Shown here: piece after piece, positions 11,823-29,770 of the stretch | How the letters are laid out: every line of letters starts with the position of its first letter | Position numbering within the stretch: the stretch's first letter is position 1 | Virus genome (UHGV): UHGV-1370141 | DNA from: a virus | Length of the DNA: 64,000 nt | Direction: 5' to 3' (one strand) | Translations under genes and position numbers: made by a program | Notes under the pieces: generated by a model | Databases searched by the model: none | Told to the model about the DNA's origin: nothing | The model's input: the letters and a program-made list of their open reading frames with translations, nothing else

Positions 11823-11832
11823 ATCCGGCCTC

Positions 11833-13107
11833 TTAGATTGCAAAGTAGTCTTCCACGATTTCATCGGTAGACTGATAACTTACACTACCTGCCGCTAAAA
11901 CGTAGTTACGTTTTTCGGTGGTCATCAGCGCTTGTATCGCGTTAGCGCCTGCGTAAGTATAAAGTTTCAGTTCAGTGGTTTCGGGAGTAACGTTTTTCGT
12001 TTTATCCCATTTGGCATCCAGTGCTTTAAACAACGCTAACATTCGTGTCCCGTACGTACTAAAGCTCGTGCCGGTTTCCACACGCAAGTTAGCCATGATG
12101 TTTTGAATCACGGTTTCCGCAATCTGTTTGCCCTGACCTTCCTGAAGTTTGCCCAGGTAATACTCTGTTGAGTCCAAGTTGCCGGTAGCAGCAGCTTGAA
12201 TCATCAACTCCCCGTAAAGCGCCTCTTTTGCTTGATCGTCACTGATAGCCTGAATCATCGGGTCGATTTTTGCAGGCAATCCGTAACTGTTAAGTTTCGT
12301 AGACAGACCGTAGATCAACGCAGACGACGTGTTAATGTCTAACGCTGAAAAACTGTCACTGCCTTTGAAACTGTTAATCAAGTTGTCGATGGCTAAGAAA
12401 TCGTCAAGGTCTTTATAGCTGTCAAACGTGTGTTGTACGTCATCAATAACTGAGGTTATCTGGTAACGCATACTGTTGACTTCAGACATAAAGTTGTTGA
12501 CTTCATGACTGATTTCTGAAGGAAGCTTAGCCAGTTGACCTGCGATATTCAGCGTTCCTTCGAGACGCTTCTTCACGGAGGAGAAGTCAGTACCGATTCC
12601 TGACAGAAAAGAATCACTCAGCGACGAAAGGCTGTCCCAACCTTTGCCCAGTAAACTTCCTGAGTCACCGGGTGACAGATACCCTAGTGCTTTAAGCCCT
12701 TCCTCATTAACCTTTTTGAAAGGTTCTGAAACATCACGCTTCTGCGGATCGAGAACAGGTAGTGTCTCTTTAGTGTTAGAAGCAAACCCAGGAACTTTTT
12801 GTCCTGGGGAAACACCGGAGGTGGAGCTGCCTGCTGTTTTGGTACCCCCTACGCTGGCAATGTCACTACCACCGAACAGGTTACCGATTTTTGAGGTCAG
12901 TTCACTTCCACCGCTGATGAGTTTGTTAAAGGTTTCACCAGCACGATCGGAAAGCTGACTGACTTTATCTACGGTATTCTGAATGCCACGTTCGGCGTTC
13001 TCTACCGTAGATTGTACTCGGTTAACCGCATTCTTCGCGGTATTAACCGAGTTGTCGATAGCCGATTGACCTTTGTTAATCTGGCCGGTTATCTGATCGA
13101 GTTTCAT
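11833..13107 (-). CDS. Hypothetical protein (424 aa), N-terminal coiled coil, S/G-rich middle
   Basis: Long ORF; heptad-like N-terminus (QINKGQSAIDNSVNTAKNAVNRVQSTVENAERGIQNTV). Confidence 0.45.
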   Translation of the reverse strand: MKLDQITGQINKGQSAIDNSVNTAKNAVNRVQSTVENAERGIQNTVDKVSQLSDRAGETFNKLISGGSELTSKIGNLFGGSDIASVGGTKTAGSSTSGVSPGQKVPGFASNTKETLPVLDPQKRDVSEPFKKVNEEGLKALGYLSPGDSGSLLGKGWDSLSSLSDSFLSGIGTDFSSVKKRLEGTLNIAGQLAKLPSEISHEVNNFMSEVNSMRYQITSVIDDVQHTFDSYKDLDDFLAIDNLINSFKGSDSFSALDINTSSALIYGLSTKLNSYGLPAKIDPMIQAISDDQAKEALYGELMIQAAATGNLDSTEYYLGKLQEGQGKQIAETVIQNIMANLRVETGTSFSTYGTRMLALFKALDAKWDKTKNVTPETTELKLYTYAGANAIQALMTTEKRNYVLAAGSVSYQSTDEIVEDYFAI

Positions 13108-13919
13108 TCTGTACTCCGAAATTGATAAGCCTCGAGGTCAACCGTGTGAACGACTTCGTAAATCTTGTTGTCGTTTTTGCGTTTTAACGTCAACAGAATG
13201 TCGAATTTCTTCACATCAATCGCCTTGAGTATCCTCATAAACCATTTCCAAGACAGCTTCTTTTTCAGTCGCATGTTGTGCTGCATATTGTGCCGCATGT
13301 CGTTGCGTTTAGAAGCGATAGGAAGACAGTTCTCTGGATTATTAACATAGTTCGTTGAAAGTCGATGCCACCAATCCGAAGTCATTTTGATATTCGCAAA
13401 GATTGTCCACAGGAGTCTCGAAAGGGGGTGTTCCATCGTCTTTGCTGTCCCCGCACAATCTCGGAAGAAACGATTTAATTCCGTACTGGCACTGGCCGTC
13501 GGTTTCTCGTTACAGTCTTCAAAATCGTAGCGGATAAGATCGTCACGCACTCGTGTGGTGACTTCAGAAATGGTTTTTGTCTGGAAACGTCCACGGTAAG
13601 TCGTTATACAGATTCTTAACGATTCTACTCCGGTAATCACTAACCCTTCCGTGAAACCTCGCCACGTAAGGTCAACTGGTAAGTCACGGTTGTTACCTGA
13701 GGTAAGTTTCGTTGAGATGCGTTGTACTCGATCTTCGAGAACGGCCTTCGAACGTGTGCGGAAATCAGGGGACAGGATGTGTCTTGCAACTGCAAGCTTA
13801 TAATCTTTAGGTTCCCACCCAATCTGAGTTTTATATTCCCAGTAAAGTTTTTGCAACGGTTTACCCGCACGTTCTTCTTCGTCTCGTTGCAGTTTTGCTT
13901 TTGCTTCGTTATCCATCAC
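13104..13919 (-). CDS. Hypothetical protein (271 aa)
   Basis: ORF with 4-nt stop/start overlap with the downstream gene. Confidence 0.45.
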   Translation of the reverse strand: MMDNEAKAKLQRDEEERAGKPLQKLYWEYKTQIGWEPKDYKLAVARHILSPDFRTRSKAVLEDRVQRISTKLTSGNNRDLPVDLTWRGFTEGLVITGVESLRICITTYRGRFQTKTISEVTTRVRDDLIRYDFEDCNEKPTASASTELNRFFRDCAGTAKTMEHPLSRLLWTIFANIKMTSDWWHRLSTNYVNNPENCLPIASKRNDMRHNMQHNMRLKKKLSWKWFMRILKAIDVKKFDILLTLKRKNDNKIYEVVHTVDLEAYQFRSTE

Positions 13920-13949
13920 TTCACCTTGTTACAAGGGGTTAACTGATTA

Positions 13950-14498
13950 TTAAACAGGTCGGTTTAAAAGGTAGTGTTCGATGAGTACCTCCATTTCACG
14001 AAACAAATGTGCACAGTGATTTACCAATGCCCGATCTTCATCGGTCTTGGGCTTTAAGAAAATATCTTCGTAAGGTTCGATAAGCTCGAGTAACTGCGTT
14101 AGCTTATAATAGGCAACCGCCGGATTGGACGTCCCAAAATAAGTGTCTAACCAGCGGTTTTCTGATGAGTCTTTTTGTTTACTTAACGACTCTGGCAATG
14201 ATAACCACTCGATAGAGGTTCCATTAATCGTGCGTTGGTATTCGTTGATATAAAAAGCAAGACGTTGGTAAAGAATATCGAGATTAGCGATACGTAACTC
14301 GAGATTACCACGTAAGCTGGGGTGGTAGGGTTCGGTATCTACGTTTATAGGCAACGTAAGCAACCGTAAGCCGCTAAACGTTCTCACGTAGGGGTTATGG
14401 ATGTTCTTATGAAACTCCTGCCTTAGAGACTCTCTGAGAGCCTGTAAACGCTTTTGCTGTAGACGTTTCTTAAAACGTGTTATTAATCCTGTAAACAT
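13950..14498 (-). CDS. Hypothetical protein (182 aa)
   Basis: ORF in - block. Confidence 0.4.
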   Translation of the reverse strand: MFTGLITRFKKRLQQKRLQALRESLRQEFHKNIHNPYVRTFSGLRLLTLPINVDTEPYHPSLRGNLELRIANLDILYQRLAFYINEYQRTINGTSIEWLSLPESLSKQKDSSENRWLDTYFGTSNPAVAYYKLTQLLELIEPYEDIFLKPKTDEDRALVNHCAHLFREMEVLIEHYLLNRPV

Positions 14499-14570
14499 AA
14501 TTCACTCCGAAAGAATGTCTCACGTAAATAATATCTGTCTGACTTCTTTTTGAAAATGAGGTGGTTTTAA

Positions 14571-15035
14571 ATGGCTGAAGAAGAAGTGAAATACCAGGCG
14601 TTAGATGGTGAAGTAGACGACGAAGAATCGCTTCTCCGCCAAACGCAACAAGCCCGTGTCAGAATTGTCAATCTAATCTTAGACGATCCTAATGCTCACA
14701 AAGACTTAAAGACCGTGGATCGTATCGGGACGTTATTAAACGACCTAGATAAGCAGATCATTTCTAAACGTCGTGTTGCCGCTGCCCAGAAAAACAGTGA
14801 AGCGAACCAAGACTTGGCTAACGCACTGAATACAATTCTGATGCAACGCGGTAACGTGAAAATAAAACGTCACGATGAAGAACCTGATGAAAATAATGGT
14901 TACCAACCCACCCTTCCAGACATTCCTAACGTAGAAATCTCGGAAGGGGAGTTGGCTCCGGTTGGCGAACAAATTGACGTGAAGTCCATTATGACTGCGG
15001 CGTTTGCGCGTCCTTCTTCGGACGAGCCAGACTAA
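14571..15035 (+). CDS. Acidic hypothetical protein (154 aa)
   Basis: Isolated + strand ORF with strong SD (GAGGTGG) 7-8 nt upstream; strongly net-negative composition. Confidence 0.45.
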   Translation: MAEEEVKYQALDGEVDDEESLLRQTQQARVRIVNLILDDPNAHKDLKTVDRIGTLLNDLDKQIISKRRVAAAQKNSEANQDLANALNTILMQRGNVKIKRHDEEPDENNGYQPTLPDIPNVEISEGELAPVGEQIDVKSIMTAAFARPSSDEPD

Positions 15036-15711
15036 ATAGCGCAGAATCACGTGGGTCGACACCGACCCACTCTGCCATAAACCGGATGTGTTCCTTGAAC
15101 GGATTCACACCATCGCGTTTAAGCTGCTCTACCGTCTCTTTTGTAAGTTCCGGCGTTAGCAGGGCAGGGTGCGTAATGGTAAAGCTAGGGATAGGCTTTT
15201 TCAGATGTTTCGCATTGAGTTCAATCCAAGCGAACCAATCGTACATTATCCAACAATCCCAAGCTGTCGCTAAACGACCCGGCGTAAGTTCCGAATGCGG
15301 CCACGACACTAACTCAACCTGCACCATATCGTAATAGATACGGAACATCTGCAAGAACGTTTGCATTTCTTGGTCAGTAAGATCAGTATACGGCCAGGTG
15401 TTAATTGTCAGCGTCGGTTTTTCGATAGGCGAATGCATCTCGATTTCGAGTAACATACATTCGAACTCGTTCTTCATCGTCAACAACAGTTCGGTGGGTT
15501 CTGCATTCATCAACGCGCGTTTATCGCGTTTCTGATATTCCTCTTTCCAATTCTCAAACCCCAAGACAGTCGCCCATTCCTCCGTAAAACGACGACGATA
15601 AACGTCGTAATCCATAATTTCCAATCTTTCAGGTTTGATGGCTTTGACCCAACCGATTCGGGTGTCAAACAACGCATCGATATCAATCAAAAAACGTCGA
15701 GAAAATCTCAT
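14989..15711 (-). CDS. Hypothetical protein (240 aa)
   Basis: ORF; 3' end converges with 14571..15035. Confidence 0.45.
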   Translation of the reverse strand: MRFSRRFLIDIDALFDTRIGWVKAIKPERLEIMDYDVYRRRFTEEWATVLGFENWKEEYQKRDKRALMNAEPTELLLTMKNEFECMLLEIEMHSPIEKPTLTINTWPYTDLTDQEMQTFLQMFRIYYDMVQVELVSWPHSELTPGRLATAWDCWIMYDWFAWIELNAKHLKKPIPSFTITHPALLTPELTKETVEQLKRDGVNPFKEHIRFMAEWVGVDPRDSALFSLARPKKDAQTPQS

Positions 15712-16376
15712 GACGGATGGCCTATGTTGTTACCAATGTGCATCGCTTTCAGATACGCAGACCAGGTACGTGTTGCTTTCGAACTGGTACGTTCTGCTCC
15801 CGGCAGGTCAATACGTCCCTTACCGGTTTGACGTAACGATTGATAGAACGCACGTTGTAAAGCTTCGTTACCCCCACGCGCCCACAGAAACTCTTTCAGT
15901 GTCCAGTCGTGACCATCGGAGTACATGATGTACGCTTCTGGGAAAGATACACCAGATGCTTTAGAAGGACCAACAACTTGACCGGAGAGTTTATCACGAA
16001 CTTTGTCGTTCTTCGCTACTGCCATTTTCTTTTCTTGCATCTGCGTTTGACGACGCGCAGGCAAGCGCAATACCAGATGTGGGTAGCGGGTACGATGGAA
16101 AACACCCGTTTTCGGCTCAGTTAACCACAATCGCTGTTCCAGGTTCAAACCTAAAACACGACATAGCTTAACGTTTCGCATGTGGTCGATTTTAACTTTA
16201 CTGCCGACCGGGTTGTAAATCGGTAAGCCTTCACGAAGACGATTAAACTGTTCGTCCGTCATTCGAGCAAAGGCTTTCTTTGCTGCCTCTGCGTTAATCC
16301 CAGAGGGGTCAACCAGGCTTAAGATTTGTAAGGCGTAAGCTTCTGCTTTTTTACGCCGCGCTGGATCGAGTTTCAT
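15708..16376 (-). CDS. Hypothetical protein (222 aa)
   Basis: ORF with 4-nt overlap with the downstream gene. Confidence 0.45.
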   Translation of the reverse strand: MKLDPARRKKAEAYALQILSLVDPSGINAEAAKKAFARMTDEQFNRLREGLPIYNPVGSKVKIDHMRNVKLCRVLGLNLEQRLWLTEPKTGVFHRTRYPHLVLRLPARRQTQMQEKKMAVAKNDKVRDKLSGQVVGPSKASGVSFPEAYIMYSDGHDWTLKEFLWARGGNEALQRAFYQSLRQTGKGRIDLPGAERTSSKATRTWSAYLKAMHIGNNIGHPS

Positions 16377-16650
16377 TTTCTACCGCCTTACGCAAGTTGG
16401 AAAGTGTCCCTGCTTCGAGGGTTTCAATCCAATAACTGATGTCGTCGGTGTTTTCAGGTACGTCGAATTTCACCGGCGGGTAACCGTAGTGTTCGAGTAA
16501 CTTGGAATAATATTCACCGACCTTTAAACAAAAAGATTCACGATCGGGAAAGAAAGTAGCGAAAGTCTCACGAAATGCCGCTGCTGTTTCCAGACTGACG
16601 CTGGCTAAACCTTCGCTTAAGCGCTCCACAATCTCCGTTTGATAACGCAT
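16351..16650 (-). CDS. Hypothetical protein (99 aa)
   Basis: ORF in - block. Confidence 0.35.
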   Translation of the reverse strand: MRYQTEIVERLSEGLASVSLETAAAFRETFATFFPDRESFCLKVGEYYSKLLEHYGYPPVKFDVPENTDDISYWIETLEAGTLSNLRKAVENETRSSAA

Positions 16651-16695
16651 AACGACTCCTTAGCTAGGGTAGGGGATTACCCTACCCTAACGCTT

Positions 16696-18192
16696 TTATT
16701 TCTTTTTGGTGAGGAACTTCGGTTCCAGGCCGTCCACGGCCATACCCAGAATCGTACGGGCAGTTAACGTGCGTTTACCACCTTTCGTTTCTTGGTCTTT
16801 AAACATCCAGTATTCTACGGTGTTCTCCAGAATCTCATTCCAATCCCATTTCTCATCAATGAGTTTGTAGATTTCTTCCATCGTGAGGTGGTATTTAACC
16901 TCTAAACGATGGTAGTTGTTCTGCATGTACGCAATCGCGGCCGTGATTTCTAATGCCCGACGCAGTTTCGGGTTATCGTCGATCATGTCGCGAATCGTCG
17001 TACGCTGGAATTTAACACCAGGCAGAATCTGGAGTTCTTTAATGGAACCACCGCTACCGCTGGATGTAAATCCAAATTCGGATTTTTTCAGAGTGTCACT
17101 CAGGTAATGCCACAGGCTCAGGTGATACAGTAGACCCATCTCTTGCGAGAAGATCATCTGGAACTTCACGCCCGTGTGACCGCCTTTAGCACGGTACTGC
17201 GTAAAGGTGATAACTTTCAGGTCGTTAACCGACGCGTTCATGGCTTTTGAACGTGCGGTTGGGTAAAGTTCTTCGTTAACACCGGTCTGGGCGTTATAAC
17301 TCTGGTCTTTTTTCAGCTCGCCTGATTTTGTCGCAACAATAAACGAGTTAGTCAAGAAACTTAATTGACGACGAGGAATCCCTGCGAATTTGAGATCGTC
17401 GTTCGCATCGTCCAGCAGTTTCGCGTTTGCTTTCTGTCCTTGACGACCGCCCGCCATCGCCTTACCGGAGTCATCGGCCATCTGTGCAACAAAGCCCATG
17501 TAGAAACCACCACGGGCAAACGCAGACGGCCAACGGCTCATCATGTTCGATTTCTGTAAGGCGTCGTGGGCGTTGAGGATGTTCTGATCGGAATCACCGA
17601 TATCCGTTTTAGCGTGCTTGTCTTCCAGAGAAGACGAGTGCCACTCCGACAGGGAGTCGATAGAATACAGCCACGGGTCAAGGATTTCTTTTTGCTTACG
17701 ACGAACCGGGTCAAGGAACGGCGTTACACGCGTTTTACCAGACATATACTGCTTGAAGCGTTTTTCCACTTCATCACGAATATAGTCACTGTAATATTGT
17801 TCCCCTGGCATCACGTCAGAACCAACGAGGTTATAACGACCTTCGTGAATAAGTTCCAGTACCGAAGTTCCATCGTCAATACCGTTGGCGTGCATGGCAG
17901 AAATATAACCGGTCTCTAAGCGATCGAGGGCAGCAGACACTTCGGTATCGTATTTCGAACCCCACTCCGCTTTATAGCGTTGCAGGATTTGGAAGATACA
18001 GAAATCCAACAGTGTGGATTTGAAGGTGTTACCACGACCCGCGAAACCCATGATGTGGGCAAAACCACCGTTAAGGTAGTATAAACCATCTTCGCCTCTT
18101 TCGTAGTTGCCTAAGGCGTGGTCCATGATGGTATAAACGTTAAAACGAGGACGAATTACTTCACCGATAACTTGCTTAGTTGGGCCTGCCAT
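16696..18192 (-). CDS. RecA-superfamily recombinase candidate (UvsX-like non-canonical P-loop)
   Basis: GGFAHIMGFAGRGNTFKSTLLDF...QRYK resembles, from memory, T4 UvsX GG..G..ILAGPSKSFKS...RQYP; later IDSL. Protein is about 100 aa longer than UvsX. Confidence 0.35.
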   Translation of the reverse strand: MAGPTKQVIGEVIRPRFNVYTIMDHALGNYERGEDGLYYLNGGFAHIMGFAGRGNTFKSTLLDFCIFQILQRYKAEWGSKYDTEVSAALDRLETGYISAMHANGIDDGTSVLELIHEGRYNLVGSDVMPGEQYYSDYIRDEVEKRFKQYMSGKTRVTPFLDPVRRKQKEILDPWLYSIDSLSEWHSSSLEDKHAKTDIGDSDQNILNAHDALQKSNMMSRWPSAFARGGFYMGFVAQMADDSGKAMAGGRQGQKANAKLLDDANDDLKFAGIPRRQLSFLTNSFIVATKSGELKKDQSYNAQTGVNEELYPTARSKAMNASVNDLKVITFTQYRAKGGHTGVKFQMIFSQEMGLLYHLSLWHYLSDTLKKSEFGFTSSGSGGSIKELQILPGVKFQRTTIRDMIDDNPKLRRALEITAAIAYMQNNYHRLEVKYHLTMEEIYKLIDEKWDWNEILENTVEYWMFKDQETKGGKRTLTARTILGMAVDGLEPKFLTKKK

Positions 18193-18207
18193 TTAGCGCT
18201 CCAATAA

Positions 18208-18507
18208 TTAACGATTCTTGGTCGGAAGAAGAAGACGGCGTTTGTGCCAGAATTCAAAGTAGGTCTCTACCCACTCGGTGACTTCTTCCGATTTTTCAGG
18301 ATAGGGGTTCTCAATAGACTCGAAACGACGTTTGTTGCGCTCGTCGATTTCTAATTCCATCACGCGCTTACCGTTAGGTAAAGAGGTCACGCTAAGAATC
18401 TTACCTACTTGAATAGGCTTACCTTCTTTGTCTTTTTTCACCGGGGTAAGATAGATTTCCGGTTCCAGACGAGGCGTGGTGTTTCGAGTCAGTAATTTGA
18501 TTTTCAT
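18208..18507 (-). CDS. Hypothetical protein (99 aa)
   Basis: ORF immediately downstream of 16696..18192. Confidence 0.35.
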   Translation of the reverse strand: MKIKLLTRNTTPRLEPEIYLTPVKKDKEGKPIQVGKILSVTSLPNGKRVMELEIDERNKRRFESIENPYPEKSEEVTEWVETYFEFWHKRRLLLPTKNR

Positions 18508-18604
18508 CGAGCTTTACCTTTATGAGATAATCTCGGTCATAAGTTCAGGATGAACTGTAAAAAGACTTTACTATGTAACCCTGACTTATAATCCGAGGTT
18601 TTAA

Positions 18605-19360
18605 ATGAACGTAAATCCACTTGCAGCGTTAACTAGCTTTGCCGCTAAAGCGTCTGCAATCTTACCCAAAGGGTTCAGTGGCCCTCAACAAGAGATTGCA
18701 TTAACCACTTACGACGACATGTCAGACGTTTCCAAGTGGATGCAACAGGAAAAATTCTTACACTTTGCAGGCATGTTGGTTATTGTACCGCCAGGCTTCA
18801 ATACCTACGTAATGGATCACATTAACCGCTTAGAATCGGTGTGGAGTTCATTACAGAAGATCTACGACGGTGTCCTTTTACCTGTTGAGTTGCAACTTTC
18901 CGCCCTTACACATGATGTGGGCGTACTGTCATTACCTATCGGTTTCCGTTATAAAAACGTTAACATTCCGTTACGTAACGTGAATCCGAAAGACCTGGTT
19001 AACCAGTTGGCTAAGTCTTACACCAACAACGTTATTGACCAGCGTCCGATTGAGAAAACGTATCACAGTGCTACGGAGATCGATATTGCGTTTAACCGTG
19101 CAAAAGCACTGAACGTTGAAATCACGAAGAAACTTCGTACGAACATCGATAAATCCATCGAGTCCATCAAAGCCTCTGCAACGATTCTGTCTGAACAAAA
19201 CATTCATCCTAACGTGGCAAAAGAACTGACAGCGATGTTAGACTTTGCATCCGATTGGGTTGAACTGTTTGGTTTGTTCATGAAACAGGTGAACGAATTG
19301 ATTGAATGTCTGAACGTGACGGCTGAACGCCTGAAAGCGCTGAAGGCAAACAAAAAATAA
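18605..19360 (+). CDS. Hypothetical protein (251 aa)
   Basis: Isolated + strand ORF with GAGG SD, followed by a clear terminator. Confidence 0.45.
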   Translation: MNVNPLAALTSFAAKASAILPKGFSGPQQEIALTTYDDMSDVSKWMQQEKFLHFAGMLVIVPPGFNTYVMDHINRLESVWSSLQKIYDGVLLPVELQLSALTHDVGVLSLPIGFRYKNVNIPLRNVNPKDLVNQLAKSYTNNVIDQRPIEKTYHSATEIDIAFNRAKALNVEITKKLRTNIDKSIESIKASATILSEQNIHPNVAKELTAMLDFASDWVELFGLFMKQVNELIECLNVTAERLKALKANKK

Positions 19361-19373
19361 AAAGTAAAAGCTA

Positions 19374-19410
19374 CCCCTAGACCACAAGGTCTAGGGGTAA
19401 TCTTTATTTT
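19374..19410 (+). terminator. Rho-independent terminator (CCCCTAGACC-acaa-GGTCTAGGGG plus T-tract)
   Basis: Perfect 10 bp stem followed by TAATCTTTATTTT, 14 nt after the stop of 18605..19360. Confidence 0.55.
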
Positions 19411-19414
19411 CACG

Positions 19415-20299
19415 CTAAAAACCAGATATAAAGGTGGGCGCAATCCATCGCCACTCCTGCCAGCGTGGTCCTGTCATTGGCCCACACCAGACCCGTTTCC
19501 AATGTGCCCTGCGTATGTGCGCTGCGCGATGAGGCGTTAAACAGATTCTCCTGCCTTCCCTGCGTTGTTTTTCTAAGTCTTCGCGTTGTACTGGACTTAC
19601 GTCAACAACGACAGGTTCTCTCCGTGGGAGGATTTCTGTATCAGGTACGTAACGTGTCGTTCTACCACGGTATTCCCGTCTCTCGCGTTCCGATTTCTTC
19701 ACCCGCGAGGAAAGATATAAACCGATATGTACCTCATCCAGAAGTTCCTCGTCCTTTGACTCGTTAGCAAAGTAAGGCTCTAAACTAACAAAGTCATCTG
19801 CCTTTCTGTTGAACCGATAAATCTTGGTTGTCCAACAGTGCCGCTGATTTATCTCCACCCATCGTAAAACGAACAATACTTCTTCACCTTCGAATTTACG
19901 ACGACCGATAAAGAGCGTAGCAGGAAGTTCGTTAATCTTGACAGTCACGGAAAAGGTGAATGAAGGGATGGCTTCAATCCACGCGTACGGAATATCCGTT
20001 AAACGTTCTGTGTCTGCAAGTAATCCCATCAGCTCTTTATCAGAGATAATTTCAATACCTGCGTATTGCCAACCCAAACCTAACGACTGACGAATAGAAT
20101 ACGGCACCTGTTTGGTGGTGCCGAACTCACGGTACGTTGGGTCGTTAACGGGCAGAAAGGTTACGGGAAGTTGTCTCTTGTGTTCCCTGACAAACGTTAG
20201 AAAACGATCTTCTTTCAGACCAAACAAGTCTTTGTGTGCAGTCTCTATAGCTTCACTAATACGTCGAAGCGTGTCTCCATAAATTCTGCGTCTTAACAT
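19415..20299 (-). CDS. Paralogue A of a two-gene family with conserved basic C-terminal motif (AAHIRRAHWKRVW.GP)
   Basis: Start moved to internal Met (MLRRRIYGD) with AGGAGA SD, removing the 113-nt overlap with the upstream paralogue; shares GW.Y.G, IPa.T and the C-terminal motif with 20310..21242. Confidence 0.5.
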   Translation of the reverse strand: MLRRRIYGDTLRRISEAIETAHKDLFGLKEDRFLTFVREHKRQLPVTFLPVNDPTYREFGTTKQVPYSIRQSLGLGWQYAGIEIISDKELMGLLADTERLTDIPYAWIEAIPSFTFSVTVKINELPATLFIGRRKFEGEEVLFVLRWVEINQRHCWTTKIYRFNRKADDFVSLEPYFANESKDEELLDEVHIGLYLSSRVKKSERERREYRGRTTRYVPDTEILPRREPVVVDVSPVQREDLEKQRREGRRICLTPHRAAHIRRAHWKRVWCGPMTGPRWQEWRWIAPTFISGF

Positions 20300-20309
20300 T
20301 ATAATTCTC

Positions 20310-21242
20310 CTAGTCTTGCGTGTGGGGTACGTAGCCTCGGACAAATGTCGGTGGAATCCAGCAAAGTTTTCTTTTTCTTTCACCGTTTCTTGGGCCAACC
20401 CAGTATCTACGCCAGTGTGCACGACGTATATGTGCAGCTTTGGCGTGTTTGATACCCTGCATGGCTTTCAAGTCGGTGTTAAATCCTTTTAGATATTTTA
20501 CTTGTCCTGGTGTGATATCAACCTTAACATCACGTTCTCGCGGTTTAACGTCGTAACTAATACTACCGTTCTTTTTGATTTCCCTGAACTTAATATCATT
20601 AAAAGACTCCCTGTAATTAGGCGGGATTAGCGTGCACAGAAATATCATCGAAGTGGCGGCTTTGGCCAGAGATAACCATAACATCTTCTCTTCTTCGGTC
20701 TGTACGCCAGTTGTATAATCAATTTCAACAAGCCCGTTTCCTACACTACGAAGCTCTAACGAACAAGTGGCAATTGTGGTAACTCCTTCTGTTAACCCGT
20801 AATCAGTATTTGTAGCGATTATAATAAACCTTTTCTTCCCATTTTTTCGATAGCCGAGAAAGAAAGTCTCATCCTCTTTACCTACGTCGATTGCCACAGT
20901 CCATGCGGGTATAAAGTCCAACCATTCTTCAGGGAATTTACTGGGCATCTCAGTCTCGAAAACAAGTTCTCTAAGTGCTTGGTTGGATATTAAGGAAACC
21001 CCGCCATATAGCCACCCGATTGCCAACGTTTGTGCGTGAAGGGAACGTGGATCTTTGAGACCTAACTCAGTGTCGTAGGGTATAAAGGAATTGGTTAAAT
21101 GGTTACGATTCTTTTTTATCCATTTCGAGACAGGATTTTCTTTTGTTTGGTTTTCTTCCATGACATTTTCTAGATGCTGACTCCCCATTTGTCTAAGACA
21201 GTCTTTAATACCTTTTACTTTTTTACTTTTGTACAAATACAT
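20310..21242 (-). CDS. Paralogue B of the same family (C-terminal AAHIRRAHWRRYWVGP)
   Basis: 310-aa ORF in tandem with paralogue A; same C-terminal motif. Confidence 0.5.
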   Translation of the reverse strand: MYLYKSKKVKGIKDCLRQMGSQHLENVMEENQTKENPVSKWIKKNRNHLTNSFIPYDTELGLKDPRSLHAQTLAIGWLYGGVSLISNQALRELVFETEMPSKFPEEWLDFIPAWTVAIDVGKEDETFFLGYRKNGKKRFIIIATNTDYGLTEGVTTIATCSLELRSVGNGLVEIDYTTGVQTEEEKMLWLSLAKAATSMIFLCTLIPPNYRESFNDIKFREIKKNGSISYDVKPRERDVKVDITPGQVKYLKGFNTDLKAMQGIKHAKAAHIRRAHWRRYWVGPRNGERKRKLCWIPPTFVRGYVPHTQD

Positions 21243-21262
21243 GGTATATGCTCCTAAAATGG

Positions 21263-21294
21263 TTAAAATAAAGCAACCCTAGCCGAAGCTAGGG
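21263..21294 (-). terminator. Rho-independent terminator (CCCTAGC-cgaa-GCTAGGG; U-run on - strand)
   Basis: Inverted repeat with plus-strand A-run on its 5' side, immediately after the stop of 21301..21789. Confidence 0.45.
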
Positions 21295-21300
21295 TGTATG

Positions 21301-21789
21301 TTAGTCGATCTTGACGTAATTTGGGTAATTAGCTTTCAACCACTCCCACAGGTGTAATGCGAGCATACCTTGGTCGTAGCTAATAATATCCACAATACCG
21401 TGTGAGTGTGCTTCATTACCCCAAATTTGACTATAGAAACGACGCCACTCACCTTCTGCATATGGTGGTACAATTGCTGGGATAAAACCGTTATGGTATT
21501 CGTTAATTAGTGATTGTAAAGTTTCAATACGGATTCCGTATAACCGTCTATCGATGAACGATTTTGTGATCCCACCAAAGAAACCAACAAAGAAATCATC
21601 CAGACTCGTTATAAGTCGGGCTCTGTAATTATTTTCGATGTAGTCGGCGGCAACGCCAGCCATCCACGGAGTATCGACGACCATTGGCGCGAGTTTATTT
21701 CTGATCGTGGCATGTACACGGTCGGTATGGTTGAGGAATTCATGAATAATGTCGGAATTTTTCAAAGCGATAATTTGATTTAAATTCAT
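21301..21789 (-). CDS. Hypothetical protein (162 aa)
   Basis: ORF with AAGGAG SD. Confidence 0.4.
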   Translation of the reverse strand: MNLNQIIALKNSDIIHEFLNHTDRVHATIRNKLAPMVVDTPWMAGVAADYIENNYRARLITSLDDFFVGFFGGITKSFIDRRLYGIRIETLQSLINEYHNGFIPAIVPPYAEGEWRRFYSQIWGNEAHSHGIVDIISYDQGMLALHLWEWLKANYPNYVKID

Positions 21790-21806
21790 GTTTTAATCTC
21801 CTTAAG

Positions 21807-22355
21807 TTAAACGGTGCTTGTCTTAGCGGGTTGAAGTTTTGATGATAAATAAATAATCTCGGAACTACACACCCTTTTTACTAATGCCAAATTTTCAATA
21901 AAGATATCTCGAATGCGAGACGTGGTTTCATTAGTAAGAATATCGCTCCAGCATACAGTATCGACTATGTTGGTTTCAGCATTCTGTTGCTGTATAACAC
22001 CAACGTAAATCGTTTCGAAATCGTCTGGGGAATGGTTTTGTAAATAGTGTGCTGCGTCGACGAACGCCTTTTCCAGTATTGATTCTACCGTAGTGTCTGG
22101 GTCGGTTACACGAACCAGGTAGGGTCGCTCTATCACTGCGTGAATCCGCCTTTCTAACACGTCTACCAGAAAATCCACCATCGCTTTAGCATCTAAGATT
22201 ACCACGGTTTCCCCGTTGTTCTCTTTTGTTAGCTTTCTCTCGTACACCGCTATCGCGTCGTGCAGTTCTAACGTCACTTTATTTCGCATTTCGGTAAGTA
22301 TTTTATTTAGCCTGTCTCGTGACGAGCTCAGAGAGAAATCAATAAGTAATTTCAT
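21807..22355 (-). CDS. Hypothetical protein (182 aa)
   Basis: ORF in - block. Confidence 0.4.
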   Translation of the reverse strand: MKLLIDFSLSSSRDRLNKILTEMRNKVTLELHDAIAVYERKLTKENNGETVVILDAKAMVDFLVDVLERRIHAVIERPYLVRVTDPDTTVESILEKAFVDAAHYLQNHSPDDFETIYVGVIQQQNAETNIVDTVCWSDILTNETTSRIRDIFIENLALVKRVCSSEIIYLSSKLQPAKTSTV

Positions 22356-22356
22356 G

Positions 22357-23094
22357 TTAATAATCCTGATAAATGACGTCAGCCCGGTCTTTACGTAACT
22401 GGCAGTATGTCACATCCGCACCGTTAGGGATTCGCACACCGGTGTCTTCAAGATAGATAACACCAGTCTGATTACAGAAATAAAAAGACCACAAATACGG
22501 ATCGCCATGACACCCATTTTCGTAATGATTGAACGGCCAATAACCACGATGTAATTCATCAAAATCATCGCGCTCGATACCGTAAGCAATCATTTCTTTT
22601 TCCCACAACTTACATTCAGCGTCATAAGTCGAATACCAGAAACCAACGAGATTCTTTGTTCGTTTGACGTTCATTAAGTCGTTATAAATGGGAAAGAGCG
22701 CTTTATTGTAATTTTCTAACATGTTCGAGGAAAGTAGAAAATTCACGTAGTATTCTAGCCATTGATAAACGGCCTCCCAGACATCTTCAGAGGAGAAATG
22801 TTCGAATACGGCGTCATCACAATCGTAGTTATCGAAGATCGCTGAGAGATCTATTATGACGTCACGAAGGTCAAAGTTTCGGTTGGTGTTGACAGCGTCA
22901 ATAACCTCAGAGACGAGGTGGGTAAAGACATTTGTACAGGCTGATTGTGCGGTGTAAAAGAATTCTCCTTGGACAGTTGACCATTTTGGGTCTTTCAGGC
23001 GTTCATTGAAGTATTGTGGCCAAATTTTATAAAAGAGTCCCTCGAACAACGAGGGATTAATACGTTGTAATTGAGGGACATAAACTTTCAACAT
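22357..23094 (-). CDS. Hypothetical protein (245 aa)
   Basis: ORF in - block; W/Y/F-rich. Confidence 0.4.
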   Translation of the reverse strand: MLKVYVPQLQRINPSLFEGLFYKIWPQYFNERLKDPKWSTVQGEFFYTAQSACTNVFTHLVSEVIDAVNTNRNFDLRDVIIDLSAIFDNYDCDDAVFEHFSSEDVWEAVYQWLEYYVNFLLSSNMLENYNKALFPIYNDLMNVKRTKNLVGFWYSTYDAECKLWEKEMIAYGIERDDFDELHRGYWPFNHYENGCHGDPYLWSFYFCNQTGVIYLEDTGVRIPNGADVTYCQLRKDRADVIYQDY

Positions 23095-23131
23095 GGTGAC
23101 TAACTCCGAGGGTTCTACACCTGAATAATAT

Positions 23132-23803
23132 CTATCTAAGAAAGTTTTTAGCGAAATAGGGATCGATGTGAAACGCTTTCACGAGAGAATCATAGCCGGA
23201 GTGAATCTGATCGGAGTTGAGCAGGAAACGGTCTAGATCGTGAGGCAATATCCAGGCGTCACCTTGTTTGAAAATAGTGTGACCTACAGTTTCTGGAGAA
23301 AATCGAATTTCTTCCGGGAAGGGATACGTTTGCTTCAAATCGAGGTCGGTGGGTTTTAAGGTAACTAAACGAACGGGTCGTTTACTGGCCACCTCCTTAA
23401 CGAATTGGTTACGATCAAACCAGATAATCTTTTCAGGGTAGCTTTCCAGCTCACTCCAGACCTTGTTAATCACCAGATTAAAGTTCTGTTGCAGTTCCCC
23501 GGATTGGTTAGCGTAACCTAAGCACTCTTCTACCAAAGCTGGATTACCGTAAGTGTTAGTAATAACCTGTGCAATCACACGTTGTGGGAAACAATCTTTC
23601 GGTATATCACAACCTGCATTGTACAATGCAATGATTTCCCACAATGAGCGTAAGGCAAGTTCAAGTGACACTTCCCCGAGTGTATAGTGGTCGTCAGAAT
23701 AGGGGGCTTTAAAGCCCCACTGCTGACGCGCAATTGCTGAAAAGCGTATCTGGATATAACTCGGTGCCATCGATAACGCTTGACTAAAAACAATCAGCAT
23801 CAA
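23132..23803 (-). CDS. Hypothetical protein (223 aa)
   Basis: ORF with 4-nt overlap with the upstream gene. Confidence 0.4.
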   Translation of the reverse strand: MMLIVFSQALSMAPSYIQIRFSAIARQQWGFKAPYSDDHYTLGEVSLELALRSLWEIIALYNAGCDIPKDCFPQRVIAQVITNTYGNPALVEECLGYANQSGELQQNFNLVINKVWSELESYPEKIIWFDRNQFVKEVASKRPVRLVTLKPTDLDLKQTYPFPEEIRFSPETVGHTIFKQGDAWILPHDLDRFLLNSDQIHSGYDSLVKAFHIDPYFAKNFLR

Positions 23804-25311
23804 AGTTCCTTATCGGTCAATATTCGTTTGTTTGAATAATAACCACACCATAGACCATGATACTTCTCACCGATATACACTAACGCGTATTCAATATACT
23901 GACGTTCTGGACGACGTACGGCAATGTAGAATCGCCCGTTTGGTTCTTTGATACGGTTGATTTCCGTACGCGTCGGTATGTCGATAGCACGCGTAAGAAT
24001 AGTTTTAACGTCAACCTTCCCGTTAGGGATTTTAATGGAAACGTCAAACCCTTTATCCACGTTTCGGTAAAAGTCTTTGGTGGGTTTACCTTTTTCGTCA
24101 TAAAGCAAATCGGTAATATCATTTAAGACAACGTTCGATTTGCCTTCCAAACAGTCACGCAGCCACTCTGCCAGTTCATCACGAATGGTTACGCAGCGGT
24201 ATGACAATAACGCGGGACGCAGAATACGACTGATAGACAAGTCTTCGTACATCCACAGGTTTTTGTCTTCGCTAAAGTGCATTTTGTCAACCGGGATACC
24301 GTTAGCCGCAGCTTCCGCAAACTTCTTACGTTTTACGAACAGGTTGAACACAACAGCGATAGGGTCAAACTGACGCAAACGTGGTACGCCCTCCCAGGCT
24401 TTAGCAGCGTGGGCGTTAACCAAATCATAAACGTTCGTCCACGGCTCACGTGTAAACATCACACAAAACTGCGCATCAGGGATGTATTTTCCGACGAAGA
24501 CAATATCGTCCTTCTGTTTTGCGTGGTTACCCCCGAACATGTAATAGAGATTTTCACCGTTTACTTTAACTGTAGGGTGTTGCTCATTTACCATCGGGTA
24601 GCAGAACTTGGTTACGCAAATATCAGGAAACGCGGCAACGTTAACGCCTTCACTGACGATTTCTTCCTGCTGTTCTTCCGGGATTTCGTCTGCTGACCAG
24701 TACGCCTGATAATCTAAACCTTCTCCGTGCGCAGAGATGGATGATCCTTTTCGTGCCAGCCCGTCAGCTCGTTCGTTACCGTAGTGACCAGAGTGTCCTT
24801 TGATTTTAAGAACACGAATCCCTTTTCCTTCTTTCTTCAGACGTTTCTTAATTTCCCACATCCGTTGAACCAGCTCAAGGTTCGCGATAGGGGTTCCATC
24901 AGCCCGTCGCCAGTCCCGCTTAGCCCAACCGTCAATCCAATCGTTAAACGTATTCACAACGTAAGACGCGTCGATATAGATAACGTAGTTTTTTGCAACG
25001 AACGGTGCTTTTTCGAAAACGGTTAAAAAAGCAACAATCTCTGCAACATCGGAGTGGTGGTGTTTCGGTACCGGAATAACACAGTCTACGAACTCAACAG
25101 AGTCCGGTAGCGCAGGAAGTTTTTCCTCTTTGTTAATCTGGCGATAACCAGAGGTCGTAATCCCTTCGGGAATGGTAGGGTGGCGATAAACGCCACCGTC
25201 AACAATCTCTTCCTTGTTAAACAGGTAGCCGTGAATCCCACCGCCTGTTCCCATCGGTGAGGTTAAATGGCTACCGTCGGTATAAAGTACAGCAACATCA
25301 ACGTTCTTCAT
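23800..25311 (-). CDS. RNase HI-domain protein fused to a roughly 300-aa C-terminal domain of unknown function
   Basis: N-terminal RNase HI catalytic set: VAVLYTDGS, SDVAEIVAF, YIDASYV, KGHSGHYGNERADGLA (compare E. coli RNase HI EIFTDGS ... KGHAGHPENERCDELA). Remainder unassigned. Confidence 0.7.
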   Translation of the reverse strand: MKNVDVAVLYTDGSHLTSPMGTGGGIHGYLFNKEEIVDGGVYRHPTIPEGITTSGYRQINKEEKLPALPDSVEFVDCVIPVPKHHHSDVAEIVAFLTVFEKAPFVAKNYVIYIDASYVVNTFNDWIDGWAKRDWRRADGTPIANLELVQRMWEIKKRLKKEGKGIRVLKIKGHSGHYGNERADGLARKGSSISAHGEGLDYQAYWSADEIPEEQQEEIVSEGVNVAAFPDICVTKFCYPMVNEQHPTVKVNGENLYYMFGGNHAKQKDDIVFVGKYIPDAQFCVMFTREPWTNVYDLVNAHAAKAWEGVPRLRQFDPIAVVFNLFVKRKKFAEAAANGIPVDKMHFSEDKNLWMYEDLSISRILRPALLSYRCVTIRDELAEWLRDCLEGKSNVVLNDITDLLYDEKGKPTKDFYRNVDKGFDVSIKIPNGKVDVKTILTRAIDIPTRTEINRIKEPNGRFYIAVRRPERQYIEYALVYIGEKYHGLWCGYYSNKRILTDKEL

Positions 25312-25313
25312 TC

Positions 25314-26048
25314 TTAATCCCTGGTTAACTGATCACGAATCTGTGGTGGAATATACTCACCGGTTTTCAGTTCTTCGTGACAGGCTTTAGCACGTTCGTA
25401 CCCATACTCGCGAGTAATCAGTGCAAGGTGATAAATACGTGCGGTGGTATAAGCTTCTTTCGCGGCATCCCACAAAGCATGGTGTTCAAATGCCGGTTTA
25501 CCCCGCGTCCAGTAAACTTGCTCAACGGTCAAGTCAGGCTCAAAACCAAACGCCAGCGCTAAACGTTCTGCGGTGCGGTCACTGTCTAACGCGCTGAACT
25601 TACGGAATTTACCTGGAGGGACGTCACATTGTGCGAACGCGTTCATGAAAATCGGCGAATCGAAATCCGGACCACGCATGGTGATAACAAAATTGTGTTT
25701 ACCGGTGATTTCGTCTAACCACTTACGCATCGCCCACAGCGCTTCCGGCATAGGAGTTGTACCGCCCCATGCTTCCGTGTAGGCTTCACGAGACGGTGCG
25801 TATTCAGGTTCCCCTTTACCTTCCCACCATCCTACGGTCTGTGGGTCTTCGTGGAACACAGCTTTTGCTTTAGGGTCGTTAGGATCAATACGCATATACG
25901 ACGACCCCACCATTTTTAAAGTCGGTACGTCAAAGGCAACTAAGCCCGTGGTTAACAGATACGCATCAGGACGCAGTGATTTAGTTTCTGCGTCGGCACC
26001 GATTACCAACGTCGGTAAGGTGGGTTGAATCGTTTTCGGGTATGTCAT
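25314..26048 (-). CDS. DEDDh 3'-5' exonuclease (T4 DexA-like)
   Basis: LVIGADAETKS (Exo I D-x-E), GPDFDSPIF (Exo II), HHALWDAAKE (H-x4-D Exo III); overall order resembles T4 DexA from memory. Confidence 0.6.
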   Translation of the reverse strand: MTYPKTIQPTLPTLVIGADAETKSLRPDAYLLTTGLVAFDVPTLKMVGSSYMRIDPNDPKAKAVFHEDPQTVGWWEGKGEPEYAPSREAYTEAWGGTTPMPEALWAMRKWLDEITGKHNFVITMRGPDFDSPIFMNAFAQCDVPPGKFRKFSALDSDRTAERLALAFGFEPDLTVEQVYWTRGKPAFEHHALWDAAKEAYTTARIYHLALITREYGYERAKACHEELKTGEYIPPQIRDQLTRD

Positions 26049-26085
26049 GTTAAGCTCCTTTCTCTATACATTAGAAGGGGGTTAA

Positions 26086-26130
26086 ACGTTAAAAAGAAAA
26101 TACCTCCTGTACCCCGAAGGATACAGGAGG
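26086..26130 (-). terminator. Terminator-like hairpin (CCTCCTGTA...TACAGGAGG) with U-run on - strand
   Basis: 9 bp inverted repeat with plus-strand A-run on 5' side, immediately after the stop of 26136..26591. Confidence 0.4.
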
Positions 26131-26135
26131 CGTTG

Positions 26136-26591
26136 TCAGTTCAAACACATTGTCAGATACTGATCGTAGGCGTCTAATAAAGCTTGCCGGTCAGAGCGAT
26201 AATTCCACAACAACGAATTCAGTTTACGTGATAAATCCCGACTGATTTCTTGTGGCGTTAACGCTTTGTCGTCTAATAACATCTTTTCTGGAACGGAATG
26301 TAATTTAGGAATTTCAAATCGTTCGCAGATAGGTGCTAACATCGGTGGATTCCACCCGCGTTTGACTGCTTGTTGATTTAAGTTTCGTGTGTAAAGATAA
26401 ACGTAATAAGCGTATGTATTCACATCCGCAACATATTCCCGCATCGCGTCTTTATCAATTTTCCAATTTAGCATGATAGGCGGCGCTGGCGGAGGTTGTA
26501 ACGCAGTATAGGATGGCCGTTTACCGGGTTCTCCATAGCCATTACTCACCAAACCCACGCACAAAATCATGATGAATAACAGCGATTTCAT
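26136..26591 (-). CDS. Secreted (signal-peptide) hypothetical protein (151 aa)
   Basis: N-terminus MKSLLFIMILCVGLVSNGYG is signal-peptide-like. Confidence 0.45.
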   Translation of the reverse strand: MKSLLFIMILCVGLVSNGYGEPGKRPSYTALQPPPAPPIMLNWKIDKDAMREYVADVNTYAYYVYLYTRNLNQQAVKRGWNPPMLAPICERFEIPKLHSVPEKMLLDDKALTPQEISRDLSRKLNSLLWNYRSDRQALLDAYDQYLTMCLN

Positions 26592-26594
26592 CAG

Positions 26595-27098
26595 TTACTC
26601 CTTAGGTGAGGATAACGTCTTTATGATCTCCTGACGGAAACTGTTAGCGTTTTGACTACCAACAGGTCGCGCCGAAGCTTCTTTGCGTTGTTCTGGTGTT
26701 GAAGCTGGGCTAACAGGAGTTTCTGGTTTCTTAGGTGTTAAATCTTTGGTAGAGTTGTCTTCTTTTACCGTGCTGTACCCACTTTCATATGGCGGTTTCT
26801 GGCCGAGGCAAATAAAGAGCTTGTCGTATAATCTACCATTATCATCTTTCAGTTTGTCACGATCTTGCTTCATCTCTTGGTAAGATTGCGACATGTATTG
26901 ATCATGAGATTGTACGGTAACGAGCTTGTGAAACTGCACTACGTACGCATAGGAGACGAAAGCCGAGTAGGATAACAAGACCGTGATGATTAAAGTCATT
27001 ATCTTGTTTGCTCTTGATACGTTTTCTCCTTCTCCTGGTTTAAATGCTTCCATCAACATCTGAATGAAGAACGGAAGCACTTTAAGAAATGAACCCAT
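26595..27098 (-). CDS. Membrane protein (N-terminal TM helix, charged C-terminal tail; 167 aa)
   Basis: Hydrophobic segment KIMTLIITVLLSYSAFVSYAYVV followed by a K/D/E-rich region; 4 nt upstream of the secreted-protein gene. Confidence 0.45.
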   Translation of the reverse strand: MGSFLKVLPFFIQMLMEAFKPGEGENVSRANKIMTLIITVLLSYSAFVSYAYVVQFHKLVTVQSHDQYMSQSYQEMKQDRDKLKDDNGRLYDKLFICLGQKPPYESGYSTVKEDNSTKDLTPKKPETPVSPASTPEQRKEASARPVGSQNANSFRQEIIKTLSSPKE

Positions 27099-27123
27099 TG
27101 CTCACCTCGGAGTATTTTTAATT

Positions 27124-28497
27124 ATGTTAGACTTACAAGGTTTTATTCAGATACCGGCTCTGTTTGACAATCAGGACGGCGTCACCGCTCCGGTAGGTGA
27201 GCTGTCTGATCTGACCCTCTCGTACGCGAAGAGTAAACAGACGTTTACTAAATCCAATCTGCAAGTGCAGTTGGTGACATTTACGTCTAAACGAGAAAAA
27301 CAGACGGTTGTTGTTCCAGCCGAGTTTTCTGATCATATTCTAACCGTTTCTCAATGGATTTACCAGCAAGCCATCTTGGGGAATCTGAGAAATGACGAAC
27401 TTGAATTCCAGCGCCTATTATTAGGTCAATTCCAAACAACCATTTCCGGTGTCCAGTCCGGTGCGATGATCCAGACGAACAGTAATTGGTTCCCACGTTG
27501 GGTGAGCTGGAAATATGAAGCAACTGCAGATCAAGTACAAGATGACACTGATGTAGATAACCAAATCATAGTTTGGTTCTCGGATGAAGACTTCGACCAG
27601 GACTACACGGGTTTTGAAATCGAAGTACAGATGCCGATTGAGCCAATCGACACATTCTTGGCCACAAAGTCAGTCGTTGAAAAAGCGATGGAAGGGTTTA
27701 ACCTTACCGAACACCATAAGAAAATCAACGAGTTAATGGCAGGGTTCCCGTATACTGCCATCCAAACTAACTACTACACCTGGCATGACCAAGAAAACTA
27801 CGAGTCAACACTGGTTATTCCAATGTCGGTTATCATTTACGGACGTGCAGGAAAAAACCCAACGAAAATAAAGCAAGCGTTGCGTGAACATATTCTTGCA
27901 AACTCCAGCTTTACGGTTCCGATCGGGGTGAAGGTATTCCCTGAGATCTTTACCACTACGAAATTCACAATGGTTCCGGGGTGGAAAATCCGTGGTATAC
28001 CGAATGAGGAAGACGTGGCGGCTCTCTATTCCCCCATCCTTCCATATGATTTCTGGGTCAAAGCCATTACAAAGTTTGGGGAATGGTCTGATCAGTCTGT
28101 TGCGGAAAGAAATAGTAAAACGGTAAGCAAACCGACGACGGATGTTACCGATTTACCGACCGTGTACAAATCACTGAACATGGTGGTTATCAGTGGTCCT
28201 GAAAACGACACTCGTAAGAATACCTTACACGAAACGTTACCAGACTACGCACTGATTGCAACAACAAACCCAGACATTGCACGAATGTCGAAATCCACCA
28301 CAGAATGGTTAGCGTTGTTCTTCCAGGCGTTAATAGCAGCGGAAGAATACCATCCGTATCAGACCAGTCTGGATGTCGTGAAACTCGTTGATGAAGCCGA
28401 TCCAGATAACTATTTCTGGGTGTTCGAATACGATAACGTCGAATATCGCATACTGTCTCGTAAATCGAAATGGTACACTGAAATCGACGAGGAGTAA
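27124..28497 (+). CDS. Hypothetical protein (about 458 aa)
   Basis: Start placed at the internal Met (MLDLQGF) so it does not overlap the divergent gene start at 27098; start uncertain. Confidence 0.45.
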   Translation: MLDLQGFIQIPALFDNQDGVTAPVGELSDLTLSYAKSKQTFTKSNLQVQLVTFTSKREKQTVVVPAEFSDHILTVSQWIYQQAILGNLRNDELEFQRLLLGQFQTTISGVQSGAMIQTNSNWFPRWVSWKYEATADQVQDDTDVDNQIIVWFSDEDFDQDYTGFEIEVQMPIEPIDTFLATKSVVEKAMEGFNLTEHHKKINELMAGFPYTAIQTNYYTWHDQENYESTLVIPMSVIIYGRAGKNPTKIKQALREHILANSSFTVPIGVKVFPEIFTTTKFTMVPGWKIRGIPNEEDVAALYSPILPYDFWVKAITKFGEWSDQSVAERNSKTVSKPTTDVTDLPTVYKSLNMVVISGPENDTRKNTLHETLPDYALIATTNPDIARMSKSTTEWLALFFQALIAAEEYHPYQTSLDVVKLVDEADPDNYFWVFEYDNVEYRILSRKSKWYTEIDEE

Positions 28498-28500
28498 TGA

Positions 28501-29124: not shown

Positions 29125-29170
29125 AAGAAATTACCCTACTCCTTTTCGGGAGTAGGGTAGCTTTTATTTT
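29121..29170. terminator. Bidirectional rho-independent terminator (ACCCTACTCC-ttttcg-GGAGTAGGGT with T-tract)
   Basis: Perfect 10 bp stem followed by AGCTTTTATTTT; between convergent genes ending 29124 (+) and 29169 (-). Confidence 0.6.
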
Positions 29171-29717: not shown

Positions 29718-29730
29718 TTTAATACTCCTA

Positions 29731-29770
29731 AGATGGAAAAAAGAATTAACCCTACTCCCGGAGGAGTAGG
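29731..29770 (-). terminator. Rho-independent terminator (CCCTACTCC-cgga-GGAGTAGGG; U-run on - strand)
   Basis: Same stem sequence as at 29134 and 10311; plus-strand A-run on 5' side. Confidence 0.5.

Follow-up and report, generated by a model that had tools for sequence, protein, structure and literature searches.

What does a pair of related, adjacent genes do for the jumbo phage that carries it? The question is raised by positions 19,415 to 21,242 of UHGV virus genome UHGV-1370141, where two such genes, called here ORF A and ORF B (for open reading frame), lie on the minus strand. The whole stretch of 64,000 nucleotides that was analyzed, hereafter the window, belongs to a jumbo phage of Enterobacteriaceae that is related to SPN3US. 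An earlier reading made from the letters alone (the sequence-only reading) had described a tandem pair of paralogues with a shared C-terminal motif and had assigned them to no known family. The pairing is borne out, and the family assignment is overturned. By profile searches and homologue alignment, ORF A and ORF B are very probably divergent members of the AcrVA2/FinQ family (Pfam PF26125, "AcrVA2-like") and not a new family; membership is shown by sequence, by fold and by invariant residues. The family itself is already known, and what is new here is the divergent, previously unannotated tandem members. It is reasonably likely, in addition, that the pair works as AcrVA2-type silencers of mRNA in an enterobacterial jumbo phage.

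The two genes are as follows (aa, amino acids):

20310..21242, minus strand: ORF A, AcrVA2/FinQ-family protein, 310 aa; ATG start, TAG stop at 20310-20312 included
19415..20299, minus strand: ORF B, second diverged AcrVA2/FinQ-family paralogue, 294 aa; internal ATG start at 20299

Placement in the AcrVA2/FinQ family

ORF A and ORF B are 26% identical over about 300 residues, aligned end to end by BLASTP with an expectation value (E) of 3e-23, and a match of that strength over the full length means that the paralogy is real. Of the internal blocks that had been listed as common to the two proteins, GW.Y.G is present in both (IGWLYGG and LGWQYAG), and IPaWT is found in ORF A (IPAWT) and not in ORF B, which reads IPSFT. 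No third copy was found in the 64-kb window, either by tblastn or by a motif search in all six frames.

When ORF A alone was compared with all chains in the PDB, a single protein was matched, AcrVA2 (7CI1/7CI2), with E 8.9e-5. The match runs through the C-terminus, with HIRRAHWRRYWVGP...WIPPTFV in ORF A against HIRRGHWHGYWQGT...WQPAVFV in 7ci1. ORF B alone had no match in the PDB. A profile of 14 jumbo-phage homologues finds 7ci1 with E 8.7e-8, with profile positions 100-299 aligned to chain residues 98-317, and a 129-sequence family profile that includes both ORFs finds AcrVA2 over its full length with E 6.1e-37. As a control for circularity, a hidden Markov model (HMM) was built from 118 PF26125 proteins with the window lineage left out; with this model the scores are 135.7 bits for AcrVA2, 53.0 for ORF A and 39.9 for ORF B.

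The family is large. A HMMER scan of 1.84 billion cluster representatives returned 2,986 relatives, 1,218 of them at E <= 1e-10; these are mostly 300-350 aa long, with homology from about position 75 to the end. A search with a 68-sequence alignment returned 317 proteins, and PF26125 is annotated on all 120 of the matches listed; among those 120, two are named "AcrVA2 family anti-CRISPR protein" in NCBI/UniRef naming. Orthologues that are 97-99% identical to ORF A and ORF B carry precomputed PF26125 "AcrVA2-like" matches. Both proteins also fall in phrog_6160 (E 1.2e-21 for ORF B), to which no function is assigned. Scans of both proteins and their close relatives against Pfam-A and NCBIfam were empty, and AcrVA2 itself is equally empty there; given that AcrVA2 and proteins named "AcrVA2 family" are unmatched in the copies used, the model is absent from them and the empty scans are uninformative. 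Megablast of the locus against a phage collection gave no match.

Searches that start from AcrVA2 lead to the same genes. By tblastn, AcrVA2 reaches the Alexandravirus Erwinia jumbo-phage genes that ORF A also reaches, and it matches FinQ on more than 500 enterobacterial conjugative plasmids, from E. coli, Salmonella and Shigella, at 25% identity and E 4e-11. FinQ was not reached directly by ORF A or ORF B in tblastn against plasmids. A further family homologue lies at 128488-129126 of the Erwinia jumbo phage vB_EamM_RisingSun, where it is labelled "putative mycothiosynthase", probably a mis-annotation; it is matched by AcrVA2 in tblastn (E 2e-7) and by the ORF A model in Foldseek (BFVD, E 1.4e-8).

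AcrVA2 is an anti-CRISPR protein from a Moraxella bovoculi prophage, and its length of 322 aa is similar to the 310 and 294 aa of the pair. At profile level the likeness is colinear over the whole protein, and it includes the C-terminal motif H-I-R-R-x-H-W...W-x-G...W-x-P and a conserved tryptophan, W79. Like the pair, AcrVA2 is borne on a mobile genetic element. Outside the C-terminal 45 residues identity is only about 9-20%. In the peptide pocket, E98 is the one residue of three (E98, D129, D195) that both ORFs keep; D129 lies opposite a gap in the alignment, and the counterpart of D195 is E184 in ORF A and N179 in ORF B. The gene for AcrVA2 is adjacent to acrVA1 in a prophage, whereas ORF A and ORF B form a tandem pair in a lytic-type jumbo phage.

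The C-terminal motif and the fold

Both proteins end in AAHIRRAHW(K/R)R.W.GP...W...PTF. The C-terminal strings quoted in the sequence-only reading are exact, and its basic and aromatic motif is indeed the most conserved and functionally important element of the proteins. The motif maps to the following segments:

20343..20438, minus strand: C-terminal effector motif of ORF A, residues 269-300, AAHIRRAHWRRYWVGPRNGERKRKLCWIPPTF (residue mapping, HMMER alignment to 7ci1)
19430..19525, minus strand: C-terminal effector motif of ORF B, residues 259-290, AAHIRRAHWKRVWCGPMTGPRWQEWRWIAPTF (residue mapping)

The role of the motif is known from AcrVA2. The substitutions H286A, R288A and H291A abolish downregulation of mRNA by AcrVA2 while binding of Cas12a is kept (Marino et al., bioRxiv 10.1101/2022.11.29.518452). 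The three residues are needed for a loss of target mRNA that depends on translation, and W79A and D89A result in partial defects (bioRxiv 10.1101/2022.11.29.518452). The pair is thus confidently matched to a characterized family in which H286, R288 and H291 give the motif a known role.

Residues 5-319 of AcrVA2 were rebuilt from the HMMER alignment, and conservation was counted over 275 aligned family sequences:

AcrVA2 H286: ORF A H271, ORF B H261; His in 275/275
AcrVA2 R288: ORF A R273, ORF B R263; Arg in 274/275
AcrVA2 H291: ORF A H276, ORF B H266; His in 275/275
AcrVA2 G298: ORF A G283, ORF B G273; Gly in 273/275
AcrVA2 W79: W77 in ORF A and in ORF B; Trp in 267/275
AcrVA2 D89: ORF A N87, ORF B D87; Asp in 212/275, Asn in 12/275

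The HxR..H motif is the effector signature of the AcrVA2/FinQ family. This bears on another explanation, that the pair forms a novel, unplaced family in which a C-terminus rich in basic residues, His, Arg and Trp, perhaps with a Cys, binds nucleic acid or metal directly. The guess at nucleic-acid binding does agree in spirit with an effector role directed at RNA, but direct binding of RNA or DNA is not reported for AcrVA2. The suggestion of a metal-binding element with a Cys is unsupported. The position of the Cys differs between the proteins (RKLCW in ORF A, VWCGP in ORF B), a Tyr replaces it in a close orthologue of ORF A, and no conserved Cys column appears in any alignment made; the two His are the only invariant residues seen that could serve as metal ligands. 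The family is known and its structure solved, which refutes the idea of an unplaced family, and the explanation as a whole is judged very improbable.

ORF A is predicted to have the AcrVA2 fold, with a helical N-terminal part, a mixed α/β middle and a small β-stranded C-terminal domain. The AlphaFold2 (AF2) model on which this assignment depends, built from the 129-sequence alignment, has a predicted local distance difference test score (pLDDT) of 75.8 and a predicted template modelling score (pTM) of 0.73.

Exchange of modules between close relatives

In contrast to the C-terminal motif, the rest of the protein is variable, and the part presumed to recognize the target is given here for ORF A:

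20547..21242, minus strand: variable N-terminal and middle module of ORF A, residues 1-232, presumed target-recognition part; contains W77 and N87

The window was compared with a 224-kb relative, L005. Nearly all proteins encoded in a 20-kb stretch are 96-100% identical between the two, and ORF B is 98.6% identical, with ORF A at only 72%. All of the divergence in ORF A falls in residues 1-232, for which synonymous divergence (dS) is 1.21 and nonsynonymous divergence (dN) is 0.26, whereas the C-terminal 78 residues are identical to those of the L005 protein (residues 233-310, dN 0, dS 0.20). A second relative, L018, shows the reverse, with ORF A 88% identical and ORF B only 63%. The C-terminal module thus stays constant, whereas the N-terminal and middle modules attached to it are exchanged from one close phage to another. 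Against their orthologues, both genes have dN/dS of 0.04-0.24, indicative of purifying selection, and it follows that both are functional coding genes.

The 162-aa gene just upstream of ORF A (21301-21789, minus strand) has no PHROG or Pfam match and is 56% identical to its L005 counterpart. In L001, L005 and a record from Enterobacter ludwigii, an extra gene of 174 aa is present (8931-9455 in L005), with a junction near 21450-21837; the window does not have it. Given the divergent 162-aa gene and the missing 174-aa gene, the variable island reaches upstream of ORF A.

A second hypervariable gene in the window, an ORF at 29780-30712 (minus strand), is 65% identical to its L005 counterpart, with neighbours at 97-100%. 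Its product of 310 aa belongs to phrog_11818 and has no Pfam match. It was considered as a third copy of the family, being equal in length to ORF A and also hypervariable, and was rejected: neither tblastn nor the motif search links it to the AcrVA2-like pair, and it falls in another PHROG and has no sequence relation to the two genes.

An accessory slot in jumbo phages

The lineage of the window is indicated by its UvsX-like gene (16696-18192), the product of which is 81% identical to the counterpart in Salmonella phage SPN3US, a jumbo phage that encodes a chimallin homologue. A circular record of 222,441 bp from Enterobacter ludwigii 51A:C, "plasmid unnamed1" (NZ_CP134650.1), matches positions 10000-30000 at 97.4% identity and carries the same gene pair, labelled hypothetical. 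A Salmonella assembly includes a fragment with 89% identity to ORF A. The E. ludwigii record is classed as non-mobilizable, and its genes, among them RNase H and the UvsX-like gene, are ordered as in SPN3US-like jumbo phages. Apparently the genome of a jumbo phage was submitted here under the label of a plasmid, suggesting a carrier or episomal state and pointing to Enterobacter as a likely host genus.

Single-copy homologues were found in other jumbo phages: Asesino gp235, ChrisDB gp236, pEa_SNUABM_4 (Erwinia), EC001 MGA_211 (Escherichia), SaP7 (Salmonella) and Alexandravirus AD1_242. They are grouped in phrog_6160 with the pair, are 21-30% identical over the full length and have the same invariant residues. 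They also occupy the slot of the pair, which lies downstream of an RNase H block and before a convergent 251-aa gene and the UvsX-like gene. Each of these phages has one copy, in every case called "hypothetical protein", whereas the window lineage has two that are 26% identical. ORF A is nearer to the single-copy syntenic genes of Asesino, SaP7 and EC001 (113-123 bits) than to ORF B (about 90 bits), and the best non-orthologous matches of ORF B are the ORF A group. The pattern fits an old duplication within the jumbo-phage clade.

The slot holds one copy in Asesino, ChrisDB, pEa_SNUABM_4, EC001 and SaP7 and two in the window lineage, and it is empty in SPN3US, where 62 nucleotides (nt) separate gp213 from gp214 (JN641803.1, 4220-4283). 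It is thus an accessory slot of fixed position with a copy number of 0-2, on a jumbo phage or phage episome. EC001 and SaP7 are classed in the same species as SPN3US (Seoulvirus SPN3US), yet they carry the slot gene, as clearly different alleles.

These observations can be set against the proposal that the proteins have a housekeeping role, either as parts of the virion or in regulating the expression of the phage's own genes, and share only ancestry with AcrVA2. Such a role would suit a gene that keeps its syntenic place close to the RNase H and UvsX-like genes across several jumbo-phage genera, and purifying selection on both copies would fit it too. An essential gene, however, would not be expected to vary in copy number between 0 and 2 or to have its alleles swapped between near-identical genomes, and SPN3US does without it. 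Only 4 Salmonella or Escherichia phage records were matched, compared with 28 records in which the UvsX-like neighbour is 80-90% identical. A housekeeping role is accordingly judged improbable.

Organization of the gene pair

The ORF listing gives ORF B as 19415..20422 (GTG, 335 aa), a longer form that overlaps ORF A by 113 nt. The internal start preferred in the sequence-only reading is right; it is ATG 20299, preceded by an AGGAG sequence, and independent gene calls agree with it: the 294-aa form is used on four related metagenome contigs and by the Prokaryotic Genome Annotation Pipeline (PGAP) in NZ_CP134650.1. The elements around the genes are:

20307..20311, minus strand: Shine-Dalgarno AGGAG of ORF B, 7 nt before ATG 20299; overlaps the ORF A stop codon
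21251..21255, minus strand: Shine-Dalgarno AGGAG of ORF A, 8 nt before ATG 21242
21276..21295, minus strand: terminator-like hairpin and T-run, just upstream of ORF A and past the stop of the preceding 162-aa gene
19371..19400, scores on both strands: terminator-like hairpin with a GC-rich stem of 12-13 bp, downstream of ORF B and of the convergent 251-aa gene

From this arrangement, ORF A and ORF B look like a compact two-gene unit, with a ribosome-binding site for each gene and terminator-like hairpins on both sides. A scan for sigma-70 promoters found 2 sites, against 5.1 in shuffled controls, and none is usefully placed. The 22 nt that separate the upstream terminator from ORF A occur only once in the window and so yielded no phage promoter motif. 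The convergent 251-aa gene (18605-19360) belongs to phrog_4682, for which function is unassigned, and the hairpin at 19371-19400 is common to it and ORF B.

Proposed mechanism and targets

Whether the pair acts by the same mechanism as AcrVA2 is an evenly balanced question, and the steps proposed are drawn by analogy with that protein. Through its variable N-terminal and middle part, each protein would bind one target protein at a specific peptide, probably while the nascent chain of the target is leaving the ribosome. The conserved C-terminal β-hairpin module (H-x-R-x-x-H-W...W-x-G) would then trigger loss of the target mRNA, such that the target would never be made. Silencing of this kind would suit a phage with shielded DNA, whose mRNAs, and the defence proteins of the host, are translated in the cytoplasm. 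Each paralogue would have its own target, probably a host defence protein other than Cas12a or a protein of a competing mobile element.

Cas12a itself is probably not a target of the pair. Enterobacter, Salmonella, Escherichia and Erwinia, the genera in which relatives of the phage infect or reside, are not known as carriers of Cas12a. They usually carry type I-E or I-F systems and not type V-A. With hosts that probably do not have Cas12a and a recognition part that has diverged strongly, the pair probably acts on targets other than Cas12a. The range of hosts is in this respect probably a further difference from AcrVA2. The proposal that the proteins are genuine type V-A anti-CRISPRs that silence Cas12a, as AcrVA2 does, draws on the common family, the common effector residues and the NCBI name "AcrVA2 family anti-CRISPR protein". 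It has to contend with a recognition part in ORF A and ORF B that shares almost no sequence with AcrVA2 and with the chimallin homologue encoded by SPN3US-type phages, given that the shell in related phages already excludes nucleases that target DNA. The family, including FinQ, is widespread on mobile elements, megaphages among them, mostly in hosts that do not have Cas12a, and N-terminal regions diverge among its members (bioRxiv 10.1101/2022.11.29.518452). Taken together, an anti-Cas12a function is extremely improbable.

A different choice of target is suggested by FinQ, a fertility-inhibition protein of IncI/F-like plasmids of E. coli and Salmonella that belongs to the same family and is found in the same host group, the Enterobacteriaceae. 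Its predicted structure was aligned with that of AcrVA2 by Marino et al., and FinQ reportedly reduces mRNA levels of F transfer genes (bioRxiv 10.1101/2022.11.29.518452), that is, the mRNA of a competitor and a target outside CRISPR. By extension, the pair could serve competition between elements, by acting against conjugative plasmids resident in the same cell or against rival phages, whose genes would be silenced, instead of against host immunity. The phage shares its hosts with the FinQ plasmids, and its relative apparently lives on in Enterobacter ludwigii as a 222-kb episome, a setting in which co-resident elements would count. FinQ differs in being plasmid-borne and single-copy, and the lack of a direct tblastn match between it and either ORF tells against the comparison. 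This explanation departs from AcrVA2-type silencing as proposed above in the identity of the target only, not in mechanism. A role confined to such competition is considered unlikely.

Several points weigh against the reading of the pair as AcrVA2-type silencers. The final step, loss of mRNA, is borrowed from AcrVA2, which is itself incompletely understood (Marino et al.; 2026 review). ORF A has Asn (N87) at the position of AcrVA2 D89, and D89A results in moderate loss of function in AcrVA2. The structural model covers ORF A only and leans on an alignment dominated by other family members; from a shallow alignment of 11 sequences, AF2 gave a poor, unusable model (pLDDT 47). Positive selection as the cause of the divergence of ORF A is unproven, with dN/dS of 0.22 at a saturated dS of 1.2, and the saturated dS of the variable part points to replacement of alleles by recombination rather than to demonstrable positive selection.

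Building on AcrVA2-type silencing, a more detailed proposal is put forward tentatively. The pair may be a natural two-target silencer, guided by nascent chains, in a lineage that encodes chimallin and forms a nucleus. Its specificity would be reprogrammed by swaps of N-terminal and middle modules onto an invariant C-terminal effector module, and each paralogue would silence a different cytoplasmically translated defence or competitor protein in hosts that do not have Cas12a.

Implications for the family

AcrVA2 is so far the only protein of a bacterial virus shown to recognize a nascent chain and eliminate its mRNA. What the targets are of the roughly 1,800 or more homologues in hosts free of Cas12a is a question for which this locus gives material, and the picture itself is unchanged. 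The pair and its jumbo-phage homologues, which now appear as "hypothetical protein", can be re-annotated as AcrVA2/FinQ-family proteins. Two diverged copies lie side by side, and between near relatives the differences are almost confined to the presumed recognition module of one or the other copy, which makes the locus a convenient natural system for finding targets other than Cas12a and for mapping specificity. If the proposed mechanism is true, the near-isogenic alleles of the window, L001, L005 with the E. ludwigii record, and L018 would be a ready-made map of the determinants of specificity and a route to new targets.

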